A stretch of DNA of 64,000 bases from Candidatus Ozemobacter sibiricus (GCA_003327425.1 QOQW01000007.1:71901-135900), one strand, 5' to 3'. Positions 37,499-64,000 are shown, numbered from the stretch's first letter. Program-made: numbers and translations. The notes: a model not told the origin generated them from the letters alone.

Positions 37499-38788
37499 AT
37501 GAGTCTGGCCATGGATCGCCTGCTGGCTTCGCTGCTTCTGCTCGATCTCGTGGCCTGGCTGCTCTGGGAACTGGTCGGTTGGGGGCTTGATGGAGCGCGG
37601 GGCCGGACGGAGGACGGGGAACCGCGGTCCCCGCGTCTGGCCCCGACCCGGCCGGCCGCCGTGCTTTATCCGGCCCCTCCCCGGGCGTCACCGCCGCCGG
37701 GAGCGGAGGCCGAACCGGCGCTGGCCGACTGCGATCGCCGCTTCCTGGCCCGGGTCGGGCGAGAACGCCGCTTGACCGCGGCCGAAAAGGGCAAGCTGGT
37801 GGAATTGGCCAGGCACGCCGCACCCGAGCTGCAGTGGGAAGCCGTTTCGATTCTCGTCGACGATCCCGATCAGCACCCGTTCATCTGGCGATGGCTCGAG
37901 GAGCAGGATCGCCGTCTGCTCGAACTCGTCCGGCGGTTGATGGAGACGGGGGAGATCACCCTTTCCCCGGAGCTGGTCGCCATGTTGGAAGGGTTGAGCG
38001 CAAGCCCGGATGCTTCGCCCTCGACTTTCCCTTCCCAGGCTCCTGTCGCGCTTCCCCCTGCCGATTCAACGCCGGTCGGCCCCAGCGAGGTCATTCCCGA
38101 ATACGCCGGGGCTCACGAACTGTTCCTCGCCCTGCAGCATTTTCAGGATCTGCCAGCGGATATTCGCACGGAACAGGCGACGGCGCTCATCCAGAACGGT
38201 CTGCTGGCCTCCGACCCCTATGTGCGAGGCGCGGCCGTGGCGGCCATGGGGCGCTGCTCGATTCAAGATGCCTCGCTGCATCTCCGTCGCCTGCTTGGGG
38301 ACGAATCGTCGTATGTGCGAGGGTGCGCGGTCGATGCTTTGTGCGAACTGGAAAAAGCCGGGGCGCTTTCGGCGTTGGAGCAGGTCTTGCAAGACGAAGA
38401 CACCCTGGAGGTCCTGGAAATCGTTCTGGTCAACCTCTCTCAAATGAACGTGCCGGAAGCCCTCCAGACGCTCGATCGTCACCTCGATCATCTGCCTGAA
38501 CCCATCCTGCCCATGGCGCGCCGGGTGCGACAAAGCCTGGCCAGAAAGGTGGCGCCCTCCCGGCCGTGCTCTTCACGACCAGAGGCCGAACCGGATGGCC
38601 AGGGCCAGCCCGGCCGCCAGGTGCAGGAGCAACGCCCCTTTGAGGGCTTTTCTGGCGAGGGAGGTGGGGCCATGCGGGAAGATGCCGGCCAGGCCCAGCA
38701 GCACGAGGGGGCCGGCCCATCCCCAGGCCGGAATGGCCAGCGCGGCGGCCGTTCCGACGCCGAACCAGGGGAAGAACCGCCCCGGTGA
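37499..38788 (+). CDS. Membrane-anchored HEAT-repeat protein
   Basis: N-terminal TM; HEAT/PBS-lyase repeats (DPYVRGAAVAAMGRC…, SSYVRGCAVDALCEL…). The low-complexity C-terminal ~70 aa overlap pilD on the opposite strand, so the 3' end is uncertain. Confidence 0.5.
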   Translation: MSLAMDRLLASLLLLDLVAWLLWELVGWGLDGARGRTEDGEPRSPRLAPTRPAAVLYPAPPRASPPPGAEAEPALADCDRRFLARVGRERRLTAAEKGKLVELARHAAPELQWEAVSILVDDPDQHPFIWRWLEEQDRRLLELVRRLMETGEITLSPELVAMLEGLSASPDASPSTFPSQAPVALPPADSTPVGPSEVIPEYAGAHELFLALQHFQDLPADIRTEQATALIQNGLLASDPYVRGAAVAAMGRCSIQDASLHLRRLLGDESSYVRGCAVDALCELEKAGALSALEQVLQDEDTLEVLEIVLVNLSQMNVPEALQTLDRHLDHLPEPILPMARRVRQSLARKVAPSRPCSSRPEAEPDGQGQPGRQVQEQRPFEGFSGEGGGAMREDAGQAQQHEGAGPSPGRNGQRGGRSDAEPGEEPPR

Positions 38789-39343
38789 GGGCCCGCGCGT
38801 GGCGAGCCATCCGGCGATGGTGCCCAGCACCGGAGCCAGAGCCCAGACGGCCAGCCAGGGGCCACCTGCCACCCAGGTCAGAACCGCGAAAGCCAGCAAC
38901 GGCCAGAGAAAAGGGCCGGGCGCGGCCACTTCTTCCCGGATCAACAGCATGGTCTGGATCAGCCAGATGATGGCCCAGGCGGCGGTCGGCACCAGCTGGC
39001 GGCTTGCCCCCCAGAACCAGAACGAGGAGGCAAGAATGAGGGCGGCGGCCAGCTCGACCAAGGGATACTGGATGGAGATGGGCGCCTGACAATATCGGCA
39101 GCGGCCTCGCAGCATCACCCATCCGAAGATCGGGACGAGATCGAGGGCGGACAGACGGTGGTGGCAATGGGGGCAGGCCGACGGCGGGAAGACCACCGAT
39201 CGTCCTTCCGCCATACGCAGGATGACGACGTTGGTAAAGCTGCCCAACAGGCTGCCGAAGATGCCGAACAACATCGCCCCGGCGGCCAGGGGCAGCCCCG
39301 GGGAACCGCCCAGAGGATCAGGAATGTCGGACCAGAACCCCAT
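38573..39343 (-). CDS. pilD: Prepilin peptidase / N-methyltransferase PilD (A24 family)
   Basis: Tetra-Cys zinc motif CPHCHH…CRYC, conserved A24 helices; start at internal ATG (MGFWSD) of the long ORF 38573..40054. Confidence 0.85.
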   Translation of the reverse strand: MGFWSDIPDPLGGSPGLPLAAGAMLFGIFGSLLGSFTNVVILRMAEGRSVVFPPSACPHCHHRLSALDLVPIFGWVMLRGRCRYCQAPISIQYPLVELAAALILASSFWFWGASRQLVPTAAWAIIWLIQTMLLIREEVAAPGPFLWPLLAFAVLTWVAGGPWLAVWALAPVLGTIAGWLATRGPSPGRFFPWFGVGTAAALAIPAWGWAGPLVLLGLAGIFPHGPTSLARKALKGALLLHLAAGLALAIRFGLWS

Positions 39344-39351
39344 GATCGACC

Positions 39352-41217
39352 TCACGCTGAGGGGTAGGATGGAGATGGTGACGGTAGGATATCCGAGCCC
39401 GCTTTCCAGTACAACCGAATCACGATGCCGACAGCCAGCAGAGCGAGGACCATGCCCACGGTACGGCGCGGAGAATGAACGCGGAAGAGGCGAAAGGTGC
39501 CGCCGCCTCCGGGGAGTTCGGCTCGGAGCTGTCCGCAGGGCCCGTACGGCGACAGGGAAATGCGCTGGCCCGTTTCCGCATGTTCGAGGGCCCACCCCTG
39601 ATCGTAGTGCGTCCAGCCGATCAGGATTCCTCCCGAGGCGGGAAGGTCTGCGTGAAATATGGCCTCGTGACGGCTGTTGTGCCGGAGTTCGAGGCGGGCT
39701 TCCCCGCTGGCCAGCACCTGGAGCTGATGATAAGGTCCTGCTCGGGCCGAGATCGGTCTGGGCAGACGACAATCGGCCAGGTGACAGGTGGCCGGCACGT
39801 ATTCGCAGGGATAATGGAAATCGCCAACCAGAAAGCGTTCCATCAAGTCCGTCGACAAGGGAATCGCCGTGCCTTGGACCCACAGAGCCGTAAACACCCA
39901 CATGGCGAAGCTGCTCCAGCCCGTCAAGGTGATGAGCCGGTTCAGCTGGCCTGAGCCGGCACCTGTCGCCGGCACCCACCACCCAGTCATCGCCGGGATC
40001 AGCAGAATGGTGCCCGGCCACACCCATCGCCATGGATATTGCAACGAGGCCCAACCTGGCATCCAGTGCCAGAGAGGCAGACTGATTCGGGAACTCAGCC
40101 CCAGGCCAACCATCCCGCAGATCATGGCCAGCAGGACCGGATGATCGCAGCCGAGCCGGCCGCTGGCCAAGGCGAGCAACGCCAGGCCCACGGCCAGGGC
40201 GACCGCCACGCGCATGGCCAGCCGGAAATTGGGTCGCTCGAGTCCCAGAAAAGAGGGAGGAGGCGTGTCGAGCTGTGGCGGCAGTGCGGCTGGCCCAAGA
40301 GGGTCATCCAGGAAGCTCTGGTGCGCCCAGGGTTGCTGCTTCTCGAGATGCGAGGAGAAATGCAATGAATCCAGCTCAGGGAGGGCCTCCAGAAGATAGG
40401 GGGCGGTCAACGCGGCCGCCAGCAGCGGCATCAGGAGCACGTTCCGCCAGGCAAGCCGCCCTGTCTTTCCCCAGAGCCAGGCCAGGAGCACCCACCCGGC
40501 CGCGAGGTAGCCCATCATCAGGGCGGCGGGCAGGTGCGTCCAGGCGATCAGGCTGCCCACCAAAGCCCCCTGCGCCAGAGCGGCCTGGTCACCTTCACGG
40601 CCCAGGCGGGTCAACGCCTCGAGCACCCAGGGAAAGAGCGCCATGGCACAGATGTTCTGGAACAGGAACACCCGGAACAAATGAATACTGACCACGGGAT
40701 TGGCCAGGAACAGCACCACCGCCAGCGGGGCGCGGTCTGCCAGCCCCAGGCAGGCCATCCATCGCACCAATCCCCATGTACCTGCGAGAAGGAAGACGAT
40801 CACCGTGGCCCGCAAGGCCGTGGCCGCCGACCAGCCGAGATACTGGAACCCGCTGGCCACGAGGTAGGCGCCTGGCGCATAGAAGCGGAAAGCGGCGGTT
40901 CCTCTTCCCTCGTAGATGGCGGCATCCCAATCGGGCCGGGTTCCCTCTTCCGCCAGAGTCAGGGCGAATTCTTGACTGAAGTACAGGTGGAAAGGAACAT
41001 CCCACGCGTCGGCCAGGGGACTCAGCCACAGGAACCATCCCTGTCCCAGGATCAGGCCAGCCAGGGTCCACATCGCCAGCGGGAAGAACCCAGAAAGGGC
41101 CCATTGTCCAGGCCTCTCGGCGAGTGAGCCGGCGTCTGGAGAGGCCTGTTGCGGGAGCCCGCCGAACAGGGTGGGGGGGGAAGGAGACATTGAGCCGGGA
41201 TTCCTTGGCAAGAGCAA
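39352..41217 (-). CDS. Large polytopic membrane protein, possible GT-C-type glycosyltransferase (pilin-modification candidate)
   Basis: 621 aa, >10 predicted TM helices with an extracytoplasmic-loop acidic motif (…RPDWDAAIYEGRG…); lies between pilA and pilD like TfpW/TfpO-type pilin glycosyltransferases. Confidence 0.5.
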   Translation of the reverse strand: MLLPRNPGSMSPSPPTLFGGLPQQASPDAGSLAERPGQWALSGFFPLAMWTLAGLILGQGWFLWLSPLADAWDVPFHLYFSQEFALTLAEEGTRPDWDAAIYEGRGTAAFRFYAPGAYLVASGFQYLGWSAATALRATVIVFLLAGTWGLVRWMACLGLADRAPLAVVLFLANPVVSIHLFRVFLFQNICAMALFPWVLEALTRLGREGDQAALAQGALVGSLIAWTHLPAALMMGYLAAGWVLLAWLWGKTGRLAWRNVLLMPLLAAALTAPYLLEALPELDSLHFSSHLEKQQPWAHQSFLDDPLGPAALPPQLDTPPPSFLGLERPNFRLAMRVAVALAVGLALLALASGRLGCDHPVLLAMICGMVGLGLSSRISLPLWHWMPGWASLQYPWRWVWPGTILLIPAMTGWWVPATGAGSGQLNRLITLTGWSSFAMWVFTALWVQGTAIPLSTDLMERFLVGDFHYPCEYVPATCHLADCRLPRPISARAGPYHQLQVLASGEARLELRHNSRHEAIFHADLPASGGILIGWTHYDQGWALEHAETGQRISLSPYGPCGQLRAELPGGGGTFRLFRVHSPRRTVGMVLALLAVGIVIRLYWKAGSDILPSPSPSYPSA

Positions 41218-41274
41218 CCAGGGGAGAAAATGAAAAAGGGGCGGAAAACCGCCCCTCAGACCAGCGATCGATGG

Positions 41275-41613
41275 TTATTCCACGCCACCGTGCCAAGCAC
41301 AGGTAACGCGGCCCGAACCGGTCAGGTCGCCGTCAGCGGCGTACGTGCAGCCGGTCTCGGGGTAGGAGATCTCGCTCTTGAGATACTGGCCCGACTTCAG
41401 GGTGGACAGGTCAACGGTGGACATCATCGAGGAGTGATCCATGTTGTACATCTCGATGGCACCCAGGATGACGCGCATGTTGGCGTAGCAGGCCTTCTCA
41501 CGAGCTTGCTCACGGGCTTTCCGGAAGTTGGGGATGGCGATGGCAGCCAGAATACCGATAATGGCGATAACGATCATCAGTTCGATCAGGGTGAACCCAC
41601 GGCGCTTGTTCAT
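41275..41613 (-). CDS. pilA: Type IV major pilin PilA (short pilin, 6-aa leader)
   Basis: MNKRRG|[22 protein letters not shown] with Phe1/Glu5; C-terminal Cys pair ([20 protein letters not shown]) forming the D-region loop; strong RBS AAGGAAAGGAGGTG. Confidence 0.8.
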
Positions 41614-41649
41614 TCGTTTTCACCTCCTTTCCTTTCAAGCTCCATTTTC

Positions 41650-41678
41650 ATCGTAAGAAAAAACCGACCACGTGTCAA
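41650..41678 (-). promoter_or_regulatory. Near-consensus sigma70-type promoter of pilA (TTGACA-17-TACGAT)
   Basis: Minus-strand reading TTGACAcgtggtcggttttttctTACGAT located 37-65 nt upstream of the pilA ATG; no sigma54 GG-N10-GC element seen. Confidence 0.55.
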
Positions 41679-41719
41679 GAATGTCCGGTACATTCTTCGG
41701 GTGACAAGGATTCGGCTGG

Positions 41720-42781
41720 TCAGCCCCCCTTCAACATGCGTTCCAGCTCCTTCGGATGGAGGGTATGCATGATCGCTTCTTCGAGGGTGATGTCGCCGCG
41801 CAGATACAGGTCTTTGAGGGATTGCTCGAAGGTCATCATGCCCTCGTTCTGGCTGGTCTGCATGATGGTATAGAGGCCGGAGATCTTCTGTTCGCGAATG
41901 CAGTTGGCGACGGCAGGGTTGCCGATCAGGATTTCCGTGGCCACCACGCGCCCCTTGCCGCTGGCCATGGGGAGCAGTTGCTGGGCGACGACCGCCCGCA
42001 GGACGAACGAGAGCTGTGAGCGGATCTGCGGCTGCTGGTGGGGCGGGAAGATATCGATGATGCGGTTGATGGTCTGGGCGGCATCGGTGGTATGCAGGGT
42101 GCCGAAGACCAGGTGGCCGGTTTCCGCCATGGTCAAGGCCGCGCTGACCGTTTCGAAGTCGCGCATCTCGCCCACCAGGATGACATCGGGGTCCTGGCGC
42201 AGGATGTGCCGCAGCGCTTCGGCGAACGAGGTGGTGTCGATGTGGAGTTCTCGTTGGTTGACGATCGATTTCTTATGGTAATGCAGATATTCGATCGGGT
42301 CTTCGACGGTGATGATGTGGCAGCGTTGTTCCTCGTTGATGATGTTGATCAATGAGGCCAGGGAGGTCGACTTGCCTGACCCCGTGGGGCCGGTGAACAA
42401 AACCAAGCCCTTGTTCCATTTGGTGAAATCACGCAATTTTGGCGGAAGCCGAAGATCTTCCAGGGATGGGATCTTAGTCGGGATGACCCGGAAGGCGGCA
42501 CCGATGCAGCCACGTTGCTTGTACACATTGACGCGGAAGCGGCCGAAGCCATGGACCGAATAGGAGATGTCCAGTTCGAGGTTCTCCTCGAACTCCTTCT
42601 GTTGCTCGGCCGTCAGCATGTTGTAGACCAGCGATCGGGTATCCATGGGCGTGAGGACATCAAGGTCGGTAGGGATCAATTCCCCGTCGACCCGGATGAC
42701 CGGAGGGCTGCCCACGGTGATGTGCAGGTCCGAGGCCTCGTTCTCGATGACGATGTTCAGCAGGTCGTTGAGGACGAACAT
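41720..42781 (-). CDS. pilT: Twitching-motility ATPase PilT
   Basis: Collinear with PilT (N-terminus MFVLNDLL…ASDLHITVG), Walker A GPTGSGKST, Walker B ILVGEMRD, His box GHLVFGTLHT. Confidence 0.9.
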   Translation of the reverse strand: MFVLNDLLNIVIENEASDLHITVGSPPVIRVDGELIPTDLDVLTPMDTRSLVYNMLTAEQQKEFEENLELDISYSVHGFGRFRVNVYKQRGCIGAAFRVIPTKIPSLEDLRLPPKLRDFTKWNKGLVLFTGPTGSGKSTSLASLINIINEEQRCHIITVEDPIEYLHYHKKSIVNQRELHIDTTSFAEALRHILRQDPDVILVGEMRDFETVSAALTMAETGHLVFGTLHTTDAAQTINRIIDIFPPHQQPQIRSQLSFVLRAVVAQQLLPMASGKGRVVATEILIGNPAVANCIREQKISGLYTIMQTSQNEGMMTFEQSLKDLYLRGDITLEEAIMHTLHPKELERMLKGG

Positions 42782-42836
42782 TTCCCAGCTCCTTGCGGCG
42801 TGATCGCCGTGTTTCTGTCGCTCTTCGGGTACTGTA

Positions 42837-44579
42837 TCAATGCTCACCCATGGTGACGCGGACGACTTCTTCCAGGGAGGTGATGCCTGTCAGTGCCTTG
42901 CGGAGGGCCGATTCGCGCAGGGACAGCATCCCTTCTTCGATGGCCTGCCGGCGGATGTCATCGGTGGAGCCGCCGTTGAGGATGATTTCGCGCAGGCGTT
43001 CCGACATCACCATGACCTCGTACACCCCGATGCGGCCCTTGGTGCCCGAGTTGTTGCAGGTCTCGCAGCCTTTGCCCTTGTAGAAGAGCATGTTCTTCTC
43101 GTTGATGTGCGGCAATTCGAGCCGGCGCAGCAGTTCGGGCGTGATGCCGAACTGGGCGATCTGCTCGGCGCGCGGTTTGATCTCGAATTTGCAGTCCTTG
43201 CAGATCTTGCGCACCAAGCGCTGCGCCTGCACCAGCAGGACCGACGTGGTGACCATGAACGGTTCGATCCCCATGTTGACGATACGGCCGATCGTGCCGG
43301 GGGCGTCGTTGGTGTGCAGAGTGGACAGCACCAGGTGACCGGTCATCGACGCCTTGATGGCGATTTCGGCGGTTTCGAAATCGCGGATCTCGCCGACCAT
43401 GATGATGTTCGGGTCCTGGCGGAGGAAGGCGCGCAGCGCCGCCGCGAAGGTCAGGCCGATTTCGGGCTTGCAATGGACCTGATTGATGCCCTGGAGCATG
43501 TATTCGACCGGATCTTCCGCCGTCATGCAGTTGACTTCGATGCGGTTGAGACTGGTCAAGGCCGAATACAGCGTGGTGGTCTTGCCTGATCCGGTGGGGC
43601 CGGTGACCAGGATGATCCCGTAGGGGGAGGAAATGCCGTTCTTGAAGCGTTTCAGGGTTTCCGGCTCGAATCCCAGATCTTCCAGGTTGACGCGGAGGGC
43701 GCTCTGGTCCAGGATGCGCATGACGATCTTCTCGCCCCAGATGACCGGCAGGACGCTGACACGCAGGTCGATCATACGGTTGGCGACCTTGATTTTGATG
43801 CGGCCGTCTTGCGGCAGGCGTTTCTCGGCGATGTTCAGGGACGACATGATCTTGATGCGGGAGGTGATGGCCGCCGTGGCCTTCTTGGGCGGGGTCATGG
43901 CGGTGAACAACATGCCGTCCTGGCGATAGCGAATGCGCAGTTCTTTCTCGAAAGGTTCGATGTGGATGTCGGACACCCCGTTCTGGACTGCCTGGGAAAT
44001 GACCAGGTTGCAGAGGCGGATGATCGGGGCGTCGTTTTCGCCCAGTTCGCCGAGCTGATCGAGGTCATCCGGTCCTGCTTCTTCCTTGCCGATGTCGTCG
44101 AGTTCGCCCATCAGTTTGTCTTGCTGGGCGACCGCGCCGTAGGCGTCTTGCAACGCTTTGTTGATGTCGGTCTGCGTGGCCACGACCGGTTTGACCATCA
44201 GTCCGGTCAGCAACTGGATGTCATCGATGGCGATGATGTTCAAGGGATCGACCATGGCCACCGTCAGCTTGTTGCCGACCTTATTGATCGGGATCAGCAT
44301 GTGCCGCTTGGCCAGATGCTCGGGGACCAGTTTGGCGATGACCGGGTCGATCAGGTAGTTGGACAGGTCGATGAAGGGGATCTTGAGCTGCTTGGACAGG
44401 ATCTGGACGATGTCGTGCTCGGTGACGAGGTGCATCTCGACGAGGACGGCACCCAGGCGTTTGCCGCTCTTCTTCTGCAGAGCGAGCGCCTGCTGCAGCT
44501 GCTCTTCATTGATGAGACCTTCGGCGATGAGGGCATCGCCCAGACGCATCTTTTTGGCAGCCTGTTGAATATCCGTCAT
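42837..44579 (-). CDS. pilB: Type IV pilus assembly ATPase PilB (GspE family)
   Basis: 580 aa, N-terminal GspII_E domain, Walker A GPTGSGKT, tetracysteine CKDC…CETC motif. Confidence 0.9.
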   Translation of the reverse strand: MTDIQQAAKKMRLGDALIAEGLINEEQLQQALALQKKSGKRLGAVLVEMHLVTEHDIVQILSKQLKIPFIDLSNYLIDPVIAKLVPEHLAKRHMLIPINKVGNKLTVAMVDPLNIIAIDDIQLLTGLMVKPVVATQTDINKALQDAYGAVAQQDKLMGELDDIGKEEAGPDDLDQLGELGENDAPIIRLCNLVISQAVQNGVSDIHIEPFEKELRIRYRQDGMLFTAMTPPKKATAAITSRIKIMSSLNIAEKRLPQDGRIKIKVANRMIDLRVSVLPVIWGEKIVMRILDQSALRVNLEDLGFEPETLKRFKNGISSPYGIILVTGPTGSGKTTTLYSALTSLNRIEVNCMTAEDPVEYMLQGINQVHCKPEIGLTFAAALRAFLRQDPNIIMVGEIRDFETAEIAIKASMTGHLVLSTLHTNDAPGTIGRIVNMGIEPFMVTTSVLLVQAQRLVRKICKDCKFEIKPRAEQIAQFGITPELLRRLELPHINEKNMLFYKGKGCETCNNSGTKGRIGVYEVMVMSERLREIILNGGSTDDIRRQAIEEGMLSLRESALRKALTGITSLEEVVRVTMGEH

Positions 44580-44618
44580 CGTGCGATCCTTTCTTGCATG
44601 AGGAAGTTTCTCACCTTT

Positions 44619-45551
44619 CTATTGTCGACGCCGAGGCGATGGGGCCGAAGCACCCTGGGACCGCGGGGACGCCTCTGAATCTGTGGCCTGAACTCCCAGG
44701 TGGCGTCGGAGGGCGCGGCGCATGACGGACAGGGGAGCTGGCATTCCGGTCAACAAGGTGAAGGCTGCGGCTCCCTGGCGGACCAGCAGAGCGAGCCCGT
44801 CGATCACGCGAGCGCCGTTGGCACGGGCATCCAGAAGCAAGCGGGAAGAAGGATGGTAATTGAGATCGAGGTAGGTGCTGCGAGGGCTCAAGGTCTGGCC
44901 CAGCCAGGGGAGCCGATCCTCCGCCCGCCAGCCGAGGGAAGTGGCATTGATGATCAGGGTCGAATCGACCATGGCGTCCTTCAGGGACTCGCTAGCCCAG
45001 GGCACCGGCTGCACTCGGGTGCGGTCGGAACCCCAGGGAGATACCAGACGGGACCCCGTCCGGTTCGACCAGTATACCACGGTTGCCCCGGCTTGGAAAA
45101 GACTCCACAAAACGGCCTTGGCTGCCCCGCCCGCTCCGAGCAGAACCACTTTGTCGGGCGGGCGGTCGAAGGTGGCCAGCAGATCGATCATCCCCAGGGC
45201 GTCGGTATTGTAGCCATGCATGGTCCCGTCGGCCGCGAACCGCACGGTGTTGACGGCGCCGATCTGATCGGCCGGGGCTTCGAGCGCGGTACACGCCGCC
45301 GCTGCCGCTTCCTTGTGCGGCAGCGTGACATTGACGCCCCGTACTCCCGATGCCTGCAAACCGGCCAGCGCGGTCGACAGCCGGCCGGCGGGCACGGGAA
45401 AAGGCACGTAGACAGCGTCCAGCCCCACCGCCCGCAGAGCGGCGTTCCAGAAAACCGGGCTCAGAGAATGGGAAACGGGGTCTCCCAGGACCCCGTAGAC
45501 ATGCGTGCGACCGGTGATGACAAATGAGCGAGCCGAGACGCGGACGGGCAT
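44619..45551 (-). CDS. aroE: Shikimate dehydrogenase
   Basis: YGVLGDPVSHSLSPVFWNAALRAVGL substrate-binding start and LLGAGGAAKAV Rossmann motif. Confidence 0.75.
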   Translation of the reverse strand: MPVRVSARSFVITGRTHVYGVLGDPVSHSLSPVFWNAALRAVGLDAVYVPFPVPAGRLSTALAGLQASGVRGVNVTLPHKEAAAAACTALEAPADQIGAVNTVRFAADGTMHGYNTDALGMIDLLATFDRPPDKVVLLGAGGAAKAVLWSLFQAGATVVYWSNRTGSRLVSPWGSDRTRVQPVPWASESLKDAMVDSTLIINATSLGWRAEDRLPWLGQTLSPRSTYLDLNYHPSSRLLLDARANGARVIDGLALLVRQGAAAFTLLTGMPAPLSVMRRALRRHLGVQATDSEASPRSQGASAPSPRRRQ

Positions 45552-45569
45552 GGCGAGCCCTGATCGGGC

Positions 45570-45920
45570 TCAGCCGCCCTTGAAGCTCGCGACGGCGGCC
45601 TCCAGGCTTTCGCAGATCTCGAACACCTTGGTCAGCCGGGTCAGCTCGAACAATTCGGCCACGGCGGGCGAGAGGTTGATCAGTTTCAGATCGCCCTTGG
45701 CTTTTTTGACTTTCTTGAGAGTGGCGGCGACCACTCCCAGTCCCATGCTGTTGAGGTAGTTCACTTCGTTGAAATCCATGATCAGCTTGGTCTGGCCGTC
45801 GTTGACGATCTGGTCGATCCGGTCCTTGAATTGGTTGACCGTCTCGGTCCCGATCTCCCCGCGCAGAACGATCAGGGTGATGCCTTCGGCGGCCTGTCGG
45901 ACTTCAATCTTCAGTTCCAT
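45570..45920 (-). CDS. STAS-domain anti-sigma-factor antagonist (SpoIIAA-like)
   Basis: 116 aa; conserved phosphorylatable Ser context FNEVNYLNSMGLGVV; GGAGG RBS. Confidence 0.8.
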   Translation of the reverse strand: MELKIEVRQAAEGITLIVLRGEIGTETVNQFKDRIDQIVNDGQTKLIMDFNEVNYLNSMGLGVVAATLKKVKKAKGDLKLINLSPAVAELFELTRLTKVFEICESLEAAVASFKGG

Positions 45921-46045: not shown

Positions 46046-47032
46046 TCAGAACTGCTTGGAAGCGGAGATCCGGTGCGCTTCCCCGAGGGTTTCATCGACG
46101 TACGAGTAGTCGAATCGCCAGGTTTCCACCTTGAAGCTGGCGCCCAGGGTCAGGTCTCCAGCCTGGGAACCCAACCGCAGGGCTGCGAAATCTTTCATCC
46201 ACCACTCGGCGCCGAGTCGGAATTTGGCGTTCATGTCCTGGACCTTGTTGATGTCGGCCGCCAGCGTGAGCCGGTCGTTGGGTTTGTGGGAAAGGCCGAC
46301 GGTGGTGGTGACAGGGATGCGGTCCGAGTGCCCGGATGGGGTGTCCCAGGTCAGCTTTTCGCCCAAATCGCGCAGGGACAGGCCGGCCATGGTGCGATCG
46401 GAGACCTTGTACAGGAACCCCAGATCGAGACCCCAGGAATCGGCGGAGTTGGTGAACAGGTCCTGGCGCAGCGACTTGATGTTGAGGCCGCCGTACCATC
46501 GGTCGCTCAGTTGTTTGGCGTAGGTGCCGAAAGTCGACGTCTCGGTGTCGTCAAAGTAGCTGAAGATATAGACGTTGCGGCCAGGCGTGTAGGTGCCGCC
46601 GGGGTCGGTCGCGGGCAGGTTGTCCGCCGGATCGAACGGCACGCCGTCGGTGCGGCCGGTGGCCAGCCGGGTCTCGGGAATGCCGTCGATGCCGAACCGG
46701 ATATGCGATAGGGCGACGACGGCCTTCGTCTTTCCCTGCTTATCCTTCAACAGGTGGGCGTAGTTGAAGAAGTTGTACTTGCGGTCGAGGGTCAGGTTGG
46801 CATGCATGAAGGAGGCTTCATGCTTCTTCAGCAAGGCCAGGCCCGCGGGGTTCCAGAAGGCCGCCGTGGCGTCGTCGGCCACCGCCGTGAAGGCGCTGCC
46901 CATGCCCAGGGCGCGGGCGCCCACGCCCATCTTCAGGTAGGCGCCCGCTCGCCCGGCCGAGTCGGCTTGGATCGGGGTCGCCACCAGCCCGCACAGGATG
47001 ATGGGGAGCAGGAGTTTGAGTGTGGTCTTCAT
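46046..47032 (-). CDS. PorV/UPF0164-like outer-membrane beta-barrel protein
   Basis: Signal peptide MKTTLKLLLPIILCGLVATPIQA; N-terminal signature GVGARALGMGSAFTAVADDATAAFWNPAGLA; alternating amphipathic strands; C-terminal Phe. Confidence 0.55.
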   Translation of the reverse strand: MKTTLKLLLPIILCGLVATPIQADSAGRAGAYLKMGVGARALGMGSAFTAVADDATAAFWNPAGLALLKKHEASFMHANLTLDRKYNFFNYAHLLKDKQGKTKAVVALSHIRFGIDGIPETRLATGRTDGVPFDPADNLPATDPGGTYTPGRNVYIFSYFDDTETSTFGTYAKQLSDRWYGGLNIKSLRQDLFTNSADSWGLDLGFLYKVSDRTMAGLSLRDLGEKLTWDTPSGHSDRIPVTTTVGLSHKPNDRLTLAADINKVQDMNAKFRLGAEWWMKDFAALRLGSQAGDLTLGASFKVETWRFDYSYVDETLGEAHRISASKQF

Positions 47033-47188: not shown

Positions 47189-47887
47189 TCAAATCCCTGT
47201 CAGGCCCAGGTCTTTGAGGGTTTTGTAGATGTGCGCCACCGCGCTGTCGTTCGAGCCATCCTCGGTGCGTGCAATGTTGATCTGGGCGCGGGCTTTGTCG
47301 TGGTCGCCCGGATTGTTCCGCCAGAAGTAGCAGAAGGCCAGCATGGCATGCGCTTCGGCATTGCTGACCCCGATCGGATGGGTCGCCTGGAACTTGAACG
47401 CCGGGTTACCCAGGCCGACGGCTTCGAGATGCGAGATGGCCATGCTGAACCCTGACTGCTGGCCCCTCTGGATCAGGGCGGCCGCCAAACCGATGCGGGC
47501 TTCGTTGTTGGTGCTGGCGGCCTGCGTGAAGGCGCTGTAGCCGGCCTCGACCCCGGCCGATTTGGTCTGGGACCAGCCGATGCCGTTGTAGGCCTCCGTC
47601 CGATGGGTGTCGGTGATGTTGGGGATGCTCAGCACCTGGTTGAACTTGCTGATGGCGCTGCTGTAGGCCCCGAACTTGAAGTCTTCCCAGGCCGACAACA
47701 GCAGGGCATCGGGATCGGTCTCGCCGCCGCCACCCGTGCCGGTGCCCGTACCGCCGCCGCCCCCGCTCCCTCCGGGGATCTCCCCGGGGAGCGTGTAGCG
47801 GCCCGTGCCGCCTCCGCCCCCGCCGCAGCCGCTGGCGAGGAGGATGATCAGGCCGATGGTCAGCAGGATGGAGGTGGATCGGTTCAT
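47189..47887 (-). CDS. TPR-like lipoprotein with Gly-rich linker (paralog of 57908..58678)
   Basis: Lipobox LLASGC, then GGGGGTG…GGSGGGGGTGTGTGGGG linker, then helical TPR-like domain (…TEAYNGIGWSQTK…). Confidence 0.6.
   Translation of the reverse strand: MNRSTSILLTIGLIILLASGCGGGGGGTGRYTLPGEIPGGSGGGGGTGTGTGGGGETDPDALLLSAWEDFKFGAYSSAISKFNQVLSIPNITDTHRTEAYNGIGWSQTKSAGVEAGYSAFTQAASTNNEARIGLAAALIQRGQQSGFSMAISHLEAVGLGNPAFKFQATHPIGVSNAEAHAMLAFCYFWRNNPGDHDKARAQINIARTEDGSNDSAVAHIYKTLKDLGLTGI
47711..47830 (-). repeat. Coding low-complexity Gly/Gly-Thr tract in lipoprotein gene
   Basis: Encodes CGGGGGGTGRYTLPGEIPGGSGGGGGTGTGTGGGGE. Confidence 0.6.
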
Positions 47888-47933: not shown

Positions 47934-50900
47934 TCAGCGCAGGACGGCGAGCTTGTGGGTGACCTTCACCTTGCGTTCTCCATTGTCAGGGTCGCGGACG
48001 GTGATGCGGGCCAGGTAGAGGCCGTTGGCCACGGTCTTGCCATCTTTGTTGCGGAGATCCCAGACGAGGTCCTGCACCAGTCGCCCGCCGATCAAGCGGC
48101 TGCTGATGGCCAGCTGCTCGGTGCCGGCCACCCGGTGGCCGGCCACGTCGTAGATGCCGACCTCGAAGGCCTCGGGATCGAGCCGCCGGTTGGTGCTCAC
48201 GCGCAGGGTCGTGCGCTGGACGGCCGGGTTCGGGAACTGGACGATCTCGTGGATGGCCAGCGGGGGCAGCACCTGGAACCGGAGGGCGGGCGTGACGGTC
48301 ACGTTGCCGGCCCGGTCGCTCGCCTTCAGACGGATCGTATGGTCGCCGCCGACCAGCGGAACGAGCGGGACGAAGGAGAACCGGGTGCCATCGGCGCTGA
48401 GGGTGCCGTCCTGTTCGACCTCGTCGAGGACCGCTTTGAGGCTCTCGGGAGCGAGACCCGAGCCCAGCTCGACCAGTTTCCATTCGAAGGTGGGGCGATC
48501 TTCCCGAAGGGGTCGATCGGTCGGAATCGTGGTGAGCAGCGAGGCGCGCGGGGCGAGCCGGTCGCGCAGCAGGGCGAAGGTGCCGCCGTCGGCGACGCGA
48601 GCCCGCAATCGGTCGCCGGTGCGGCTGGTGGGTACCAGTTGCCAGCCGCCGTCCGGGACCAGGCGGTAGAGGGCGGTGTCGGCGGGCAGGCTGCCGGTGC
48701 CGACCTGCAGGTCGATCTCGATCGGGCCGGCCAGGCGGCCGGCCGGGATGGCCAGAGCATAGCCGAGGTCGACGGGGGCCAGCTCCTCGTTGAGGATCTC
48801 GCCGGCGGCGAGCCGGATCGCCAGGGCGCGGGCTGCCTCGAGCGGGGCCAGGGAACCGCTCCGGAGCGCAGCGGCCAGGCCATCGCCACCCATGCCGGTC
48901 GATCCGATGGCCACGGGGGAGACGGTGACCAGCGAATCCTGTTTCAGCGTGCCGGGCTCGAAGGTCGCCGCGAACTTCTCATCGGGTGAGCGGACCTGGG
49001 CCCGGATCGACGCATTGACCACGGCGATCGAGAAGGTCAGCGTCGTGGTCGTCGTATTGCCTTTGACATCCCGGGCGACCACCTGGATGGTGGCGACTCC
49101 CTGCTTGTTGCGATCAAGGTGGGTGCCGCCGAGGTAGAGATACGGAGTGGGGCCGCCGTTGAGGGTGATGGCGACGGCGGTACCGCCGCTCTGGGTGATG
49201 GTGGCGGTGGGAGCGGCACCGAGAGGTTCGTTGACCAGCACGGCGACCGAGATGTCATACTCGTTGGCGGGGTTGCTGAAGACTGAAACCTTGACCTGGG
49301 GCGGGGTGACGTCCTGGCCCTGGAAGGTGAGGCGGGTGGTGGCGCCGTCGCTGCGGTTCTTGAACAGGTCTTCCACGCCGCTGGCGCTGATCGTGTAGTT
49401 CACACCCTCGCGGAGGTCTTCGAGCGCGGTGATCCGCACCGACTTGTTGTCGGAGCGCATGGTGATGGCGCTGATGGTGATGGTGCCGGTGCTCGACTGC
49501 AGGATGTAATTGCCGATGTTGGTGGCCGAAGAGGCGGTCACCTGTTCGTCATAGACAATGTTCACCTGCTTCTGGCTGGTAATGCCGTCGAACGTGAAGT
49601 TGACCATCAGGGGGGCCTGGGTGTCGGCGGTGAACTGGGCTCGATCGTAGCCGCTCTGGATGGTGGCGCCATCCGCGCTCAGCATGCCGGCGAGCGCCTG
49701 GATGGTGTACAGGGTGTTGTGGGTGAAGGCCTCGCCGAAGGTCAGGGTCACCTCCTTGCCGTCGACGGTTGTTGAATTCGGTTTGACCGCCGTGGGGAGG
49801 ACCGAGCTGGTCAGGTCGAAGTTGCCGGGAAGGGCGGAGGTGGGGTTGACATCGTGGGAGAAGCTCACGCGGACCGAGGTCTTGTCGATCTGTGTGGCGC
49901 CGGTGACCCGGAAAGGCGAGGTGACGACCGTGATGTCTTTGAAGACATCGGACTGGTTCTCCGCCAGATCCAGGACGTGAATGCGGTAGACGCCGTCAGG
50001 AACCAGGATGCCCTTGTTGTCTTTGCCATCCCACTCGGCGATCAAGCGTGGCAGCGTGCCGCGAGTCTGGATGTCCCGGATGATCGAGCCTCCAGAGAGG
50101 ATCCGGATCAAGGCGCCGCCATCGCCGAGCGAGGCATCGGTGGTCGACACCTGGATGGTCAAAGAGCTGACATTGGGATTGAACCGATCGGCCGGGGCGC
50201 CGCGAGCGAAGGTGTCGATGGCGATATCTTCAGGCTTGCGGGTGTCGATGACCAGCGTCGCTGAACTGGGAGCGCCGGCCATGGGCACGCCGACGTTGCC
50301 GGCCGCATCGACGACGTAGAGGGCGTATTCGTCATCCGGAATGAGCGAGTTGTTGGGTGGCGGCAGCCGGCCGTCCCAGCTGATCGTATAGCCGGAACCG
50401 GCGATGGGGGCCAGGTAGAGGGCGGTCGTGGCGAGGGGCGGGTTGATCCTGGCGACGGCCAGGCGCAGGGTCTGGTTGGCCAGCGGGCCGAACACGTCGA
50501 TCTTGGCGAAGCCCTTGACCACCGGGCTGAAGTAGGCCTTGCCGCCATAAACGTTGATGTTGCCGAAGCGCCAGAACTGCACCGTCGGGTATTCGCCATC
50601 GTAGATCACCGTGGCGCGGCGGGAACCCTCGTTCCCTTGGACGTCGTAGAAGCGCAGTTCATAGGTTTTGGTGCGGCGGCTGATGGGCAGCACATCGAGG
50701 TTGCCATCCCACAGGGCGACGTATTCCCCTGAGATCAGGTCGAGGCGCATCGGCACCGATCCGAGGTTGGTGCTGCCTTCGAAGAAGTTGACCCGTGAGG
50801 GAGTGGCGAGACCCGAACCGTCGAGGGTGACGGCGATGGTGGCGAGGGAGGGCGAGACATATGGGCTGAACGGCTGGTTCAGCAAGATCTGGTTGGGATC

Positions 50901-57907: not shown

Positions 57908-58674
<767 letters not shown>

Positions 58675-58678
<4 letters not shown>

Positions 58679-61600
58679 CTCAGTACCGCGATCTTGTGGG
58701 TCTGCCGGATCCGGCGTTCCGGGTTGTCAGGATCGGTCAGGACCACCTTGGCGATGTAGAGACCGTTGGCGACGGGATCGCCTTCTTCATTGGTCAAATC
58801 CCACGGGATGTCGTAGAGGAACCGACGAGAGGTGCCCCAGGTCTCGCGGACCGGGCGAACTCCGGTCAGGGTCCTGACCTTGTGCCCGGCAGCGTCATAC
58901 AGCTTCACCTCGACCAGGCCCTCGGCGAGGTCGTCGCGGTTGGCGCTGATCCGTAGAACCGCCCGGCGGTTGGCCGGATTGGGGTAGGCCGAGATCTCGC
59001 CGATGGCGAGGGGCACCGCCACGGCGAATCGGATGCCGGCAAGCTGGCCGAGGTTGCCGACGCGGTCGCGGGCTTCGAGGGTCAAGGTGTGCCGGCCGCC
59101 GGTCAGGTCGGTTACCGGGGTGAATCGGAAGGTGCCATCGGGCAGGACGGTCACCGGCTGAGGTGGTCCATCGTCCAGGCGGGCCAGCAAGCCCGTGGCA
59201 TCGAGACCAGAACCTGCTTCTTCGAGGCGTCCCGCGAACTCCGGTCGGGTGGTGCGGAACGGCTGGTCGGGGTCGACCTTCGTGGACAAGGTGAGGCGCG
59301 GGGCCAGCTGGTCGCACAGGACAGCATACAGACCGCCCTGGGTGATCGAAGCATGAAGGCCATCTTCCTGACGAGCATTGGAGAGGAAGACCCAACCCCG
59401 CTCGTCATCGTAGCGGAAGATGCCGGCTCGGGCACTGTCGCTGGCGAGGGCTGCGCCTCGGAACCTCAGAGCAGCCTTGCCCGTGAGTCGACCGGCCGGC
59501 AGCCCCAGTTCGAATCCGCCGCCCGCCGGCGACAGTTCCTGAGCTTGCTGTTCGAGGGTCCGCGCGTCGGTCTGGGCGGCCAATACCTTATTTTTGGCGA
59601 GGGCCATCCCGCCACCTTTCGGTCGCAGACTGGCCAGGCGGGGTCGGAGAGCGGCGCGGGTCGTCGATCCCACCGCTGTCAGTTCGATGGTCTGGGGCAG
59701 GATGGTGACCAGCGAGTCCTTGCGCAGGCTGCCGGCCGGGAAGTCCACGGCGAGTCGCTGATCGGGGGAGTGGATCAGGGTGCGGACGCTGGCGCTGACG
59801 TAGGCGATGGTGAAGACCTCGGAGCGGCTGCCGGTGTTGCCGGCCAGGTCGGTGCCTGACACCACGAGCGTGCCGTTGCCCGGATAGCCTTGATTCAGAT
59901 GGATCCCGGCCATCCAGGTCAGGGAAGCTCCGGTCGGCGTTATCACAAGGGCCACTTCCGACAGGTTGCTCTGGGTGTAGCGCAGCGTTGGCGCTCCCTG
60001 CAGCGCCTCGTTGGCGCGAGCCACGACGATCAGGTCATACTCATTGGCGGGATTCGAGAAGGCGGCCACCTCGAGGACGGGCGGTGTGAGGTCGCGCCCC
60101 TGGAAGGTGACCGTGTTGCCGGTACTCAGATTTTGGTAGCGGTCCCGCACCGCGATCGCTCGCACGGAATAGGTGACGCCCTGCAGAAGGTCGGTCGACG
60201 CCGACAGGATGACCGAAGTCTGGTCGGCGCGCAGGATGGCAGAGGTCAAGGCGATGGGGGTGCCGGCGCGCTCGAGCAGATAACTGGCCGTGGCCTGGGC
60301 GCTGGCCAGGGTGACCGCCTCGTCGAACTGGACGATGACCTCGCGTTGGCCGGTCAAGCCCTGGAAGGAAGTGCCAGTCAGCACTGGCCCGCGGGCATCG
60401 GCCAGCAAGGAGATCTTGTTGTTCGGGTCCACCGCGGCCGCCCCATCGGTGCTCCGGAGCGCGCTGCTGACGGTGATGGTATGAGTCACGTTGTGGATCA
60501 GGCCTGGGGTCAGGGTGAGGCGCACCACGGTTGGTGCCGTCAGCGAAGCGATGATGCCGGTCTGGCCGGTGACGTTGAAGGCGGTGCCAACGACGGTGGC
60601 GGGGTTGATGTCGTGGTTGAAGGTCAGGTCGACCACGGTGCTGGAGATCTGGGTGGCGTTCTGGATGCGGAAGGGCGAGGAGATGACGAAGATGCTGCCG
60701 CGATTGGAGGCGACATTGCGGGTGTAGTCGGTGGCATGGAAATGGTACAGGCCGTCGATGACCAGCTGCCCATTCTCGCGGGTCCCATTCCATTGGGCGA
60801 TCACGTAGGCACCAGAAGCGGTCACCGGCAAGCGGTTCACATAGGTATTCGCATCGGTCCGGACTTCCACCCACCACACGCCGGTGGCTACGATGGGTTC
60901 TGTGGTGGTCAACTGGATGGTCAAGGTCGCGGCGGTCGGCGAGAAGCGGCTGCGCGGCTGACCATCGACCAGCAGGGTGTACGTGGAGATGACCGGGGCG
61001 ACGGTGTCGAGAACGGCGGTGGCCACCGCCGAAAACGCCCCGGAGGGCAGGCCGACGTTGCCGGCCGCATCGACGATATCGACGTAGTAGATTCCGTCGG
61101 GAGCGGTAGGTTTGGGAACGCCGCCCCGGCTGTATTGGCCGTAGAAGGTGCCGCTCCATTGATTGACGCCGGCGCCGGTCATCGGGAAGGTATCGGTCGA
61201 GACCTGGCCGCGCACGCGCAGGCGAGGTGCGACCGTTTCGGCGGCGCTGAAGTAGCAGGTCAAGCCACCGCCCAGGGCCGGGTTGAAGTAATAGGCGCCC
61301 GTCCCGAGGATGCCTCCGGTCAGATTGGGAGCCGCCAGCACCAGAGGTTCGCTGGCGTCCATGGTCCAGGAGTAGGTTTCGCGGCTGGCATTGCCGAGCG
61401 CATCGATCAGTTTGACGACATAAGTGGTCGGCGCGGCCGGCCAGGGCCCCGAGGTCATGTTCCAGGCGTAGGTCGCCATGGTGCCGCCGCTGAACGCGAT
61501 GGGGCTGGAGGCGACTGGCGAGCCCGCTTGCAGGAAGACGATCGACACCGGCTCGACCGGCGGTTGGCTGACCTGGATGGTCAGGCTGGCCTCGCCCGGC

Positions 61601-64000
61601 GGGACGTTGAAGCTGAACGGCTGGTTGAGCAGGATTTCGCTGGCGTCGCTGGCGGTGGTCGACTGGAACGAACGGGCGGTGAAGGCGGTGACGATGGGGC
61701 CGCGGCTCTGGATGACGATGGCCGGGAACGGTCCGGCGACCGGGTTGCGGGCCAGATCGGTGCCGGTGAACACGGTGTTCCAGGGGCCTTGCGGGTGCAT
61801 CTCGTTGATCGGCTGGGTGTTGACGAACTGGGCCTGCGCGGGCCCGACCCACCCGACGAACCGGCAGGGGATGCTGTAGCCCGTGGTGGCGATCGTCATG
61901 GTCGGAGTCGCGGTGCGCTGGTTCATCGGCTCGCTGAAGGTCACGGTGAAGGTGGCCGCCCCCGAAGCCATGGTATAGAGCGGTGCGGCCGGCAGGCTCG
62001 TCAGCGAGAGCACGGTCGGCGCCGTGCGGTCGATCACCAGGCCGACGGCGCTGGCCACGCCGGTGGCGAAGTTGCCGGCCAGGTCGACGATCGTCAGGCC
62101 GTACAGCCCTTCCCCGAATCCGGCCGCCTGGGTGAGCGCTCGGGTCAACGTATGCCCGGTCGCGGTGGGGGTCAGGCGGATGGTCGTGGTGGCGGTGCCC
62201 GAGGCGATGAGCAGGCGCTGCGGGTCAGTGGCGGTGGTGGTGACCGTGAAGGTGATGGCGCCCGAGATGGCATCGTTGTAGTAGTAGAGGCCCGGGGTGG
62301 TGGTGGCGTCCGACACGCCGGTCAGGATGAAGCTGGTGACATCCGCGGGCAGATTGTCGAACACCAGAGATTTCGCGGTGGCGCTGATGTTGCCATGGAT
62401 ATCCTGGATGCGGGCGGTATAGGTAGTGAGGTTCAGGAAGGCCGGTGATCCGAAGACGCTGCCATCCAGCGTGGCGCTGCCCAGAACCCCAGCCATGGCC
62501 ACCGGCGCCGTGCCGACGTTGGTGCCGCTCGGATCATAGATCAGCACCTGATGCGGCGGACCGAACGGACCGCCCAGCGTATAGGTGATGCTCAAGGTGG
62601 CCACGTTGGGCGGCGCCAGGTCGCTGAAGGGTTGATCGAGCAAGGGGGTGAAGGTCGAGATCAGGTGCTGCTGCGTGAGCAGGGCGGCCAGGTAGGTCGG
62701 CCCGACCGACCGGATCTGGATGGTGAAGGAGGTCGGGCCCGGCGGGATGAGCCGGTTGCCAGCCAGATCGTCGGCGCCTCCGATGGTGATGGTATAGGTG
62801 CCCTGCGGAACGGTGGTGTCGATGACCGCGGCATTGCGGAACTGGGCCGAGGTCGAGCTGATCCACCCCACCAGCTCGAGCGGGATGCTGGCGGTCGGGG
62901 TGGTGCGATGGATCAACCGTCCGAAGGGGATTTCCGAGGTATCCATCGGTTCGCTGAAATCGACGGTGAAGATCCGGCCGCCCACGGGGGCCGGACCGAT
63001 GTCGAGCACGCCGGCCTGCAGCGAAGGATTGATCATGGTCACGGTCGGCGAGGCCCGGTCGACTCGCAGCATCAAGGTGCCGGTGGCGCCGCAGGAGTTG
63101 CCGGCGAGGTCGTAGAAAGAGAGCTGGTACAGACCGTCGGTCAACGTGGTTCCGGTCGACAAAGCATACGGCGGCGTCAAGATGGTGCCATTGCTGAGGA
63201 TGGTGCCGCCGCTGCTGGCGACCAGGCGCAGCGGTTCGGTCGCGGTCGGATTGGTCGTGAGCGAGAGGGTGAACGGCCCGAACCGCGGGGAATAGTACTG
63301 GACCCCGCCGGTGGCGATGCCATGGCCGGCCGTGGTGAAGACGATCTGGCTGATGGTGGCCGGGCGGCTGTCGTAGGTCAGGGTGCCGCGGGAGGTATCG
63401 GAAAGATTTCCATACTGGTCGCGGATCCAGATGGTGAATGTCGCCGGTCCGGCGTTGGGGGGGATGATGGCGAGCCAGTTGGCGCTATCGGTCGAGACCT
63501 CGACCGTGGCCGGTCCGGCGGGGCAATCATAGAGGAAGGTGGCGACCGGAATCGATCCGTTGAACAAGAGCAAGGAGTGGGTGCCCACGGCTTGCGAGGT
63601 CGTGTAGGTGATGACGAAGGTGGCCACCCCGGGCGGCTGGACGAGCGGACTGAAGGGATCGGTCGAGCGCAGGGCGCTGCCGAACACCAGCGGCTGGTTG
63701 GTCAACGTCACCACCGTGGGGGTCGGGCCGGCCGTCTGGATATAGAGCTGCCCAGGGGCGGGGATGGTGGTATTGAGCGGGTTGCCTGCCAGGTCGCGAC
63801 CGCCGGTCAAGCGGTAGGTATAGGTTCCCGTCGGAATGGTCGGTCGGACGATCGGGGTCAGGTTGAGGAAGCGGGCGGTGGTGGCGATATTGGGATCGGC
63901 CCAGGTGGGCGAGGCCATGGCCACGACGGTCGCGCCAGCGAACAATTCAAGGGTGGGAGGAGCGGCGCGATCCAGGGGTTCGCTGAAGATGACGGTGAAC
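58675..64000 (-). CDS. Second giant Big_5/Ig-repeat surface protein with T9SS type-A C-terminal domain (5' end beyond window)
   Basis: The reading frame stays open up to the window edge. It has repeated FSEPM(D/N), D.AGN and Ig-like modules. Its last ~700 aa are collinear with giant-1 (FSNPANEYD…). The CTD (YPNPANRRAVLRIS…KLYDAAGHKVRTL…WDLTNEEGDPVANGLYIAKV…KIAVLR) matches the Por secretion-tail consensus. Confidence 0.8.

Follow-up and report, generated by a model that had tools for sequence, protein, structure and literature searches.

A PorV/PorQ-family outer-membrane barrel encoded behind giant proteins with PorU-like tails in Candidatus Ozemobacter sibiricus

At the end of an array of giant-protein genes in Candidatus Ozemobacter sibiricus lies a gene for a predicted outer-membrane barrel that we place in the PorV/PorQ family, and the two giants encoded upstream of it end in C-terminal domains (CTDs) that resemble the CTD of PorU. 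We consider it probable (about 0.6) that the barrel is a CTD-binding partner, which holds or carries the two giants at the cell surface via these PorU-like tails. The DNA analyzed is a stretch of 64 kb (the window), whose relevant features are as follows.

5267-7459, minus strand: Peptidase_C25 protein, 730 aa (RCK80250.1, 'arginine-specific cysteine proteinase'), with a C25 propeptide and His (LGHGS) and Cys (SVACVNG) motifs
45570-45920, minus strand: STAS-domain gene, 125 nt downstream of the barrel gene and first gene of a STAS-aroE-pilB-pilT-pilin block
46046-47032, minus strand: PorV/PorQ-family outer-membrane barrel (OZSIB_3464), with a signal peptide, an N-terminal plug with an NPA motif, 14 predicted strands and a C-terminal Phe
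47189-47887, minus strand: TPR lipoprotein 2, 232 aa (OZSIB_3465), with lipobox Cys21 (invariant), a Gly/Thr tether (~35 residues, disordered) and a TPR-like domain of nine helices
47934-57722, minus strand: giant protein 2 (RCK80284.1, database name 'Fibronectin type III domain protein'), 3262 aa, with Ig-like repeats, a signal peptide for Sec and a CTD at its C-terminal end
47937-48266, minus strand: CTD of giant 2 (last 110 aa), with FPNPA, VANGLY and a terminal K-x-AVLR; homologous to the CTD of PorU
57908-58678, minus strand: TPR lipoprotein 1, 256 aa, paralogue of lipoprotein 2, with a (Gly-Thr)n tether
58675-64000, minus strand: giant protein 1 (partial gene), paralogue of giant 2
58678-59007, minus strand: CTD of giant 1 (last 110 aa), TIGR04183 22.2 bits vs 23

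The barrel: gene, family and predicted fold

An earlier note, made from the DNA alone, had proposed a PorV/UPF0164-type barrel at exactly positions 46046-47032. The gene is real, but it lies on the minus strand, with its ATG at 47032 and its stop at 46046-46048; a plus-strand reading of the same interval yields Gly/Ala/Arg-rich nonsense and no gene. The 328-aa product is 100% identical to OZSIB_3464 of Candidatus Ozemobacter sibiricus, a member of the Riflebacteria, which NCBI taxonomy lists among the candidate phyla of uncertain position and not in the FCB group. A Shine-Dalgarno-like AAGGGGG is found six bases 5' of the ATG, and the third-position GC of 0.84 is the same as that of the other real genes of the window (window GC 65%). 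No candidates for a terminator or a σ70 promoter were found around the gene on the minus strand. The signal peptide (MKTTLKLLLPIILCGLVATPIQA), the N-terminal motif (GVGARALGMGSAFTAVADDATAAFWNPAGLA) and the C-terminal Phe (the protein ends in ...SKQF), all of which had been named before, are present in the translation.

Searches with family models, including the PorV and PorP/SprF models that had been suggested as a check, place the protein within the PorV/PorQ family at the family level. The NCBIfam model for that family (NF033709) is passed with 125.8 bits against a cut-off of 90 (E 2.7e-36), and its best stretch covers residues 161-325, the part of the barrel in which the family-specific signal sits. 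The models for individual members are all missed: PorV (NF033710) scores 40.9 bits vs 250, PorQ (NF033711) 70.9 bits vs 220, and PorV2 (NF052325, 'putative type IX sorting system protein PorV2'), which is the best specific model after the family model, 89 bits vs 325 over residues 29-127 only. The distance to these three equivalog cut-offs is so wide that the protein is judged from its sequence not to be PorV itself. There is no match at E<=1 to PorP/SprF (Pfam PF11751). Within Pfam, UPF0164 (PF03687) is just passed (24.4 bits vs a gathering threshold of 21.4; residues 34-93 only), the PorV model gives 17.6 bits vs 27, and the top score belongs to Toluene_X (FadL; PF03349), whose 26.7 bits fall under its gathering threshold of 29.7 and cover residues 40-95 only. 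Since these three Pfam models all match only ~60 N-terminal residues of the barrel, the motif GVGARALGMGSAFTAVADDATAAFWNPAGLA is the hatch motif of the whole FadL/PorV superfamily and not a marker of PorV. Thus the PorV/UPF0164 assignment made earlier stands for the family, but it does not extend to PorV proper. (It should be noted that the PorV/PorQ family label for this protein is already present in public databases.)

Homologues of the barrel number more than 100 at 54-100% identity, and many of those from Riflebacteria lie at 54-86%; relatives in Wallbacteria and Muirbacterium share about 40-47%. The wider family is very large, comprising 28,200 clusters (50% identity) at E<=1e-3 and 1,836 at E<=1e-30. 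Within an alignment of 41 barrel sequences, F328 and the motif WNPAGL are invariant. Many relatives align in two pieces, 1-120 and 155-328, which indicates that a loop of the barrel at about residues 121-157 is specific to this clade.

The AlphaFold model (mean pLDDT 88.5, pTM 0.80) predicts 14 long strands and a helical N-terminal plug, which supports the earlier claim of a beta-barrel, and the protein as modeled corresponds to a FadL-type barrel that is secreted, has 14 strands and an N-terminal plug, and ends in an aromatic residue. A fold search with this model gives PorV (6h3i_F) as the best match (E 3e-11, TM 0.69), ahead of TodX/FadL structures (TM 0.50-0.58, E 1e-7 to 1e-9) and of BamG structures, which match more weakly. 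Likewise, when a profile of 41 homologues is compared with solved structures, PorV 6h3i_F comes first (E 6.5e-8), with TodX/CymD at about 0.1. PorV (also LptO, from the Bacteroidota type IX secretion system, T9SS; 6H3I chain F) is therefore the best solved relative by both profile and fold, and the two proteins have in common a 14-strand FadL-type barrel, an N-terminal plug and an NPA motif; they differ in that identity is ~18% and in that the barrel has 328 aa vs about 400 aa for PorV.

These comparisons also bear on the idea that the barrel is a FadL-type uptake channel for hydrophobic compounds whose neighbors are irrelevant. FadL/TodX and the spirochaete UPF0164 proteins do have the fold and the N-terminal hatch motif in common with the barrel, Toluene_X is its highest-scoring Pfam model, FadL/TodX structures match significantly, and several homologues are named 'long-subunit fatty acid transport protein' by JGI. 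However, the Toluene_X match is below threshold and, like the UPF0164 match of 60 residues, is confined to the shared hatch motif; PorV leads by profile and by fold, and the family model that is passed is that of PorV/PorQ. The best hits are thus not to FadL or unrelated porins only, the outcome that the earlier note had said would speak against its proposal. An uptake channel would, moreover, leave the enrichment of CTD genes beside such barrels (see below) unexplained, and we regard this alternative as quite improbable.

Giant proteins, lipoproteins and the layout of the locus

Read 5' to 3' on the minus strand, the genes are ordered giant 1, lipoprotein 1, giant 2, lipoprotein 2, barrel. 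The previous description of the barrel gene as lying 3' of two cargo modules is correct in this direction, the modules being those of the giant proteins. Both giants are composed of Ig-like domains, and they are 34% identical to each other over the C-terminal ~1100-1450 residues. The frame of giant 1 remains open without a stop through 63946-64000 and past the edge of the window, and hence its listed 1756-aa ORF is a truncated gene.

The tails of the giants are related to that of PorU. For giant 2, the terminal ~130 residues can be aligned to Porphyromonas gingivalis PorU (residues 1019-1142, the tail in 6za2) with an E value of 2.4e-9, and the C-terminal end of the NCBIfam PorU model scores 69.6 bits on the tail of giant 2 and 52.5 bits on that of giant 1. 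Both tails have FPNPA and VANGxY motifs and, at the sixth position from the C-terminus, the Lys that is near-invariant in type A CTDs (PMC10994853). The curated models for such domains are narrowly missed: the TIGR04183 score of giant 1 is a near miss at the cut-off of 23 (giant 2 is not listed), and Pfam Por_Secre_tail (PF18962) gives 20.1 and 17.7 bits on the two giants vs 27. An iterated CTD profile, which finds the two giants at 73.5 and 72.4 bits, also recovers a Poribacteria CTD protein (locus L019) that does pass TIGR04183. By sequence, both tails are homologous to the PorU CTD while falling just under the curated type A thresholds. The domain is well conserved in Riflebacteria, with a mean column identity of 67% and an invariant K-x-AVLR end, vs a best-segment identity of only 42-72% between the rest of the giants and their Riflebacteria orthologues. 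A search for homologous proteins with the 110-aa CTD returned a single match and gave no useful information.

The CTD profile also matches internal domains of giants (for example, in a giant 2 homologue, at L095 370-585, 3340-3555 and 4096-4296), and Pfam FlgD_ig matches the middle of both giants of the window, which argues that the tail domain is related to the repeats within the passenger. With more than 3000 residues and Ig-like repeats, the giants are probably major surface structures of this uncultured lineage.

Each giant is followed by a lipoprotein gene, and the start of lipoprotein 1 overlaps the stop of giant 1 by 4 nt. The two lipoproteins are 45-48% identical. In both, the lipobox Cys is invariant, the Gly/Thr tether is disordered, and a nine-helix domain is predicted with confidence. 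The family has 83 matches, of which the named ones are all from Riflebacteria MAGs; a fold search with the TPR lipoprotein retrieved generic TPR proteins only, without a link to a known type IX component. Positions 58443-58535, which encode the (Gly-Thr)n tether of lipoprotein 1, form an imperfect hexanucleotide tandem repeat of ~15 copies, a possible site of length variation. A FecR-domain protein encoded upstream of the barrel in another locus (L002) was considered as a relative of the TPR lipoproteins and was rejected as unrelated (24% identity).

On the 3' side of the barrel gene lie genes for STAS, aroE, pilB, pilT, a pilin, a 612-aa protein and a prepilin peptidase. This type IV pilus-like block (38400-45920, minus strand) includes a pilB with an MshEN domain and a ComGC-like pilin, and no secretin gene was seen in it. 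Wherever a Riflebacteria locus extends far enough downstream, the STAS-aroE-pilB block is present 3' of the barrel; we regard the STAS gene as probably context and not part of the barrel-giant system. The constancy of this side could be taken to mean that the barrel is an accessory of some other envelope machine, either a BamG-like factor for the assembly of outer-membrane proteins or a part of the adjacent pilus system, given that the order barrel-STAS-aroE-pilB-pilT-pilin is invariant in Riflebacteria and that the fold search includes a weak match to a BamG structure (9hiv_F, E 1.4e-7). Such a role is highly improbable: the NCBIfam BamG model (NF053685) gives 15.5 bits vs 250, a housekeeping gene, aroE, stands in between, and there is no pilus linkage outside Riflebacteria. 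As the linkage is restricted to this phylum, a pilus-related role of the barrel was rejected.

Comparison of Riflebacteria loci indicates how firmly the other genes are held together. The barrel occurs without an adjacent giant in loci L002/L003, L010 and L016, and five giant-plus-lipoprotein modules (L130, L131, L132, L134 and L141) have no barrel within 5 kb; one of these modules (L134) comes from the same metagenome as a barrel that lacks an adjacent giant (L003). Because giants are missing 5' of the barrel in the former loci, strict 1:1 pairing is limited to giant and TPR lipoprotein, and the barrel is invariantly accompanied by STAS-aroE-pilB. In most cases the barrel closes a giant array, but it can be unlinked from the array. 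The barrel had previously been suggested to be the dedicated export partner of its neighbors. A link to the upstream giants is upheld by their PorU-like tails and by the recurrent order of CTD gene and barrel described below, but 'dedicated' is too strong, since barrels without adjacent giants and modules without an adjacent barrel both exist in some Riflebacteria; 'dedicated' and 'export' alike remain inferences, as a role in export would call for a translocon and the window contains no SprA or GldKLMN gene.

Individual loci show further variation. In one Riflebacteria genome, the genes for TPR lipoprotein and barrel are separated by an inserted IS110-family transposase (L006, 8801-9826). In two loci (L004, 8483-9937; L005, 8533-9969), whose barrels are Wallbacteria-like (40-42% identity, the closest relatives outside Riflebacteria), the gene upstream of the barrel relative encodes a ~480-aa lipoprotein with CarboxypepD_reg-like domains. 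These two lipoproteins have no CTD, and they may represent a different kind of partner.

Linkage of CTD genes and barrels across phyla

Two independent linkage tests, one starting from the barrels and one from the cargo, support at the level of gene order the idea that barrel and CTD proteins are partners. The barrel-side scan used one genome per species and found relatives of the barrel at 80 loci, belonging to Riflebacteria, Poribacteria, Elusimicrobia, Eisenbacteria, Coatesbacteria, Firestonebacteria, Calditrichia, Ignavibacteria, Bacteroidota and others. In these loci, 36 CTD-protein genes end no more than 1.5 kb upstream of the barrel on the same strand. This corresponds to 0.32 CTD genes per kb within 1.5 kb upstream vs 0.0125 per kb in flanks more than 3 kb away, an enrichment with a Poisson P of about 1e-37 if one overlooks that the loci are not independent. 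When barrels at least 55% identical are collapsed, 36 informative lineage clusters remain; a CTD gene stands directly upstream in 23 of them (PorU in 4, another CTD protein in 19), a CTD protein is found downstream only in 2, and there is none in 11. The upstream proteins that were scanned include BNR/Ycf48-like and glycosidase-like proteins, a MXAN_6640-type metalloprotease and C25-like proteins, and most of them pass TIGR04183. (The TolC, HlyD and sugar kinase genes that lie upstream in the Poribacteria locus L019 are unrelated.)

The cargo-side test was a metagenome scan with the Riflebacteria CTD alignment, comprising 80 loci. Here a Riflebacteria-type CTD is followed by the TPR lipoprotein wherever there is enough downstream sequence (44/44), and a barrel follows 0.8-1.4 kb after the CTD in 12 of the 30 cases with at least 2.5 kb downstream. 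Thirteen of the other 18 were inspected: eight lead on to the next giant, with a barrel-linked CTD locus ~11 kb further along the same contig in four of them, and five have neither a barrel nor a giant within 5 kb. For distant CTDs (28-37% identity, mostly from other organisms) 20 loci are informative, and in 16 of them a barrel homologue comes next, without a lipoprotein and with a gap of -6 to +812 nt, which in 15 of the 16 is within 310 nt. The order CTD gene then barrel recurs across phyla in loci L009-L088 and L142-L170, in which stop and start sometimes overlap, and it is seen also in two Ignavibacteria loci (L072 and L073). Ignavibacteria are a lineage within the FCB group with known type IX secretion. 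Taken together, the two tests suggest a wider rule, in which a type A-like CTD gene often has a PorV/PorQ-family barrel of its own behind it; no description of such a rule was found in the literature searched.

In the mechanism that we favor, the giants would cross the inner membrane via Sec, and their CTDs, which are like type A CTDs and the PorU tail, would then be bound by the extracellular loops of the barrel. The barrel would thereby carry or tether the giants at the cell surface, in the manner of PorV with PorU, PorQ with PorZ, and the SprF-type barrels with type B cargo, and the lipid-anchored TPR protein of each giant would probably be a periplasmic adaptor or chaperone. There is precedent for the separate steps: PorU and PorZ remain attached to PorV and PorQ through their CTDs (PMC10202324), and type B cargo genes are followed by their cognate porP/sprF genes (PMC12618676). 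Several observations count against this mechanism, namely the missed equivalog and type A cut-offs, the absence of type IX genes from the window, the barrels and giants that are found unlinked, and the lipoproteins of L004/L005 that lack a CTD.

The tightness of the gene pairs raises the alternative that the barrel, by itself or together with BAM, exports the neighboring CTD protein across the outer membrane, in a two-partner-like process that would not depend on type IX secretion. Gaps from CTD stop to barrel start in other phyla are -6 to +310 nt, no translocon gene is present in the window, and CTD proteins have been reported from phyla without Por structural genes (PMC3909097). However, a plugged 14-strand barrel would be a narrow channel for a 3000-residue protein, and every characterized relative is a carrier or an accessory and not a translocon (PMC10994853, PMC12611786). 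In addition, Poribacteria, the source of the report that Por genes are absent, do have PorU. We give this alternative little credence.

Type IX components and the closest known systems

T9SS is described as specific to Bacteroidota or to the FCB superphylum (PMC12611786, PMC12618676), and nothing relevant on type IX secretion in Riflebacteria or Ozemobacter was found in the literature searched. Within the 64-kb window, no genes for SprA, GldK/L/M/N, a PorU equivalog, a PorZ equivalog or PorP/SprF were seen. The C25 protein (5267-7459) matches in NCBIfam only the PorU2 (53 bits) and PorU (33.5 bits) models, in their catalytic regions and far under cut-off; it has no CTD, lies 39 kb from the barrel and adjoins a SIS/CBS gene. 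It may be a CTD-processing enzyme.

Outside Riflebacteria the picture is different. In Poribacteria and Coatesbacteria, the gene directly upstream of a barrel homologue passes the NCBIfam PorU cut-off of 420 bits (L058, 3564-9839, and L078, 5743-9984, with 442.9 and 443.4 bits), and seven further loci (L032, L062, L065, L071, L074, L077 and L084) have a homologue of this PorU in the same position. An early study of Poribacteria found no Por structural genes and left the export route of their CTD proteins open (PMC3909097). The PorU genes directly upstream of barrel homologues indicate that porU-porV pairs exist outside the FCB superphylum, and the literature picture of the range of T9SS is therefore incomplete.

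These PorU genes are also an argument for a further reading, that the barrel is the general PorV-type shuttle of a complete but unseen type IX system, serves all CTD proteins and stands next to giants through a local habit of gene order. The barrel is kept throughout Riflebacteria, including loci without adjacent giants, as a general shuttle would be. On the other hand, there is no PorU equivalog next to the barrel and there are no type IX core genes in the window. A rough neighbor-joining tree sets the Riflebacteria barrels apart from the PorU-adjacent ones, although, being crude and built without reference PorV and PorQ sequences, it offers a hint only. Finally, in the window and in the Riflebacteria loci among L001-L017, the CTD profile matched only barrel-adjacent giants (barrel-remote modules occur elsewhere). 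On balance a general shuttle is unlikely, and a CTD-binding partner of the giants remains the preferred reading.

Viewed in this way, the locus can be compared with several known systems. Like PorV, whose gene forms a pair with porU, the barrel is encoded beside a protein with a PorU-type CTD; unlike the case of PorV, its upstream neighbors are giant Ig-repeat proteins and a TPR lipoprotein instead of PorU, its host phylum is outside FCB, and SprA is missing from the window. The closest analogy for the proposed mechanism is the attachment complex, in which an uncleaved CTD stays on a PorV-family barrel (PorQ for PorZ, PorV for PorU) and thereby anchors a large protein at the surface (PMC10202324). 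Of the older equivalog models, that for PorQ gives the barrel a higher score than that for PorV, but the passengers here are adhesin-like giants and not enzymes, and neither PorZ nor PorU has an equivalog in the window. SprB-SprF of Flavobacterium johnsoniae (type B) offers a similar arrangement, in which the gene for a large surface protein is followed by that of its own carrier barrel (PMC12618676); the differences are that another barrel family is involved here, that the CTD is type A/PorU-like and that each cargo has an extra lipoprotein. On the PorV2 model, barrel relatives from Ignavibacteria and Chitinophagales reach ~212 bits, and some of the Ignavibacteria ones have type A CTD genes upstream; the barrel itself is under the PorV2 cut-off, as given above, and only its residues 29-127 align.

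A more speculative extension, which we offer tentatively and hold to be doubtful, is that Riflebacteria lack the SprA translocon and the GldKLMN motor, and that giant CTD protein, TPR lipoprotein and barrel, perhaps together with the C25 peptidase, make up a surface-display pathway of their own. If this were true, CTD-to-barrel sorting would exist apart from the Bacteroidota type IX machine and would possibly be older than it, and such a pathway could also explain the orphan CTD proteins of other phyla without type IX secretion.

What is new here is the surrounding system, in which a giant with a type A-like CTD, a phylum-specific TPR lipoprotein and a divergent PorV/PorQ barrel occur together outside FCB. 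While T9SS has been held to be confined to Bacteroidota/FCB (PMC12611786, PMC12618676), CTD-bearing proteins occur elsewhere (PMC3909097), and the locus provides a concrete three-gene unit in a phylum outside that group. The occurrence of PorU beside barrels in Poribacteria and Coatesbacteria widens the known range of sorting components, and the rule that a CTD gene is followed by a barrel would extend the cognate-carrier principle that is known for type B cargo and SprF.
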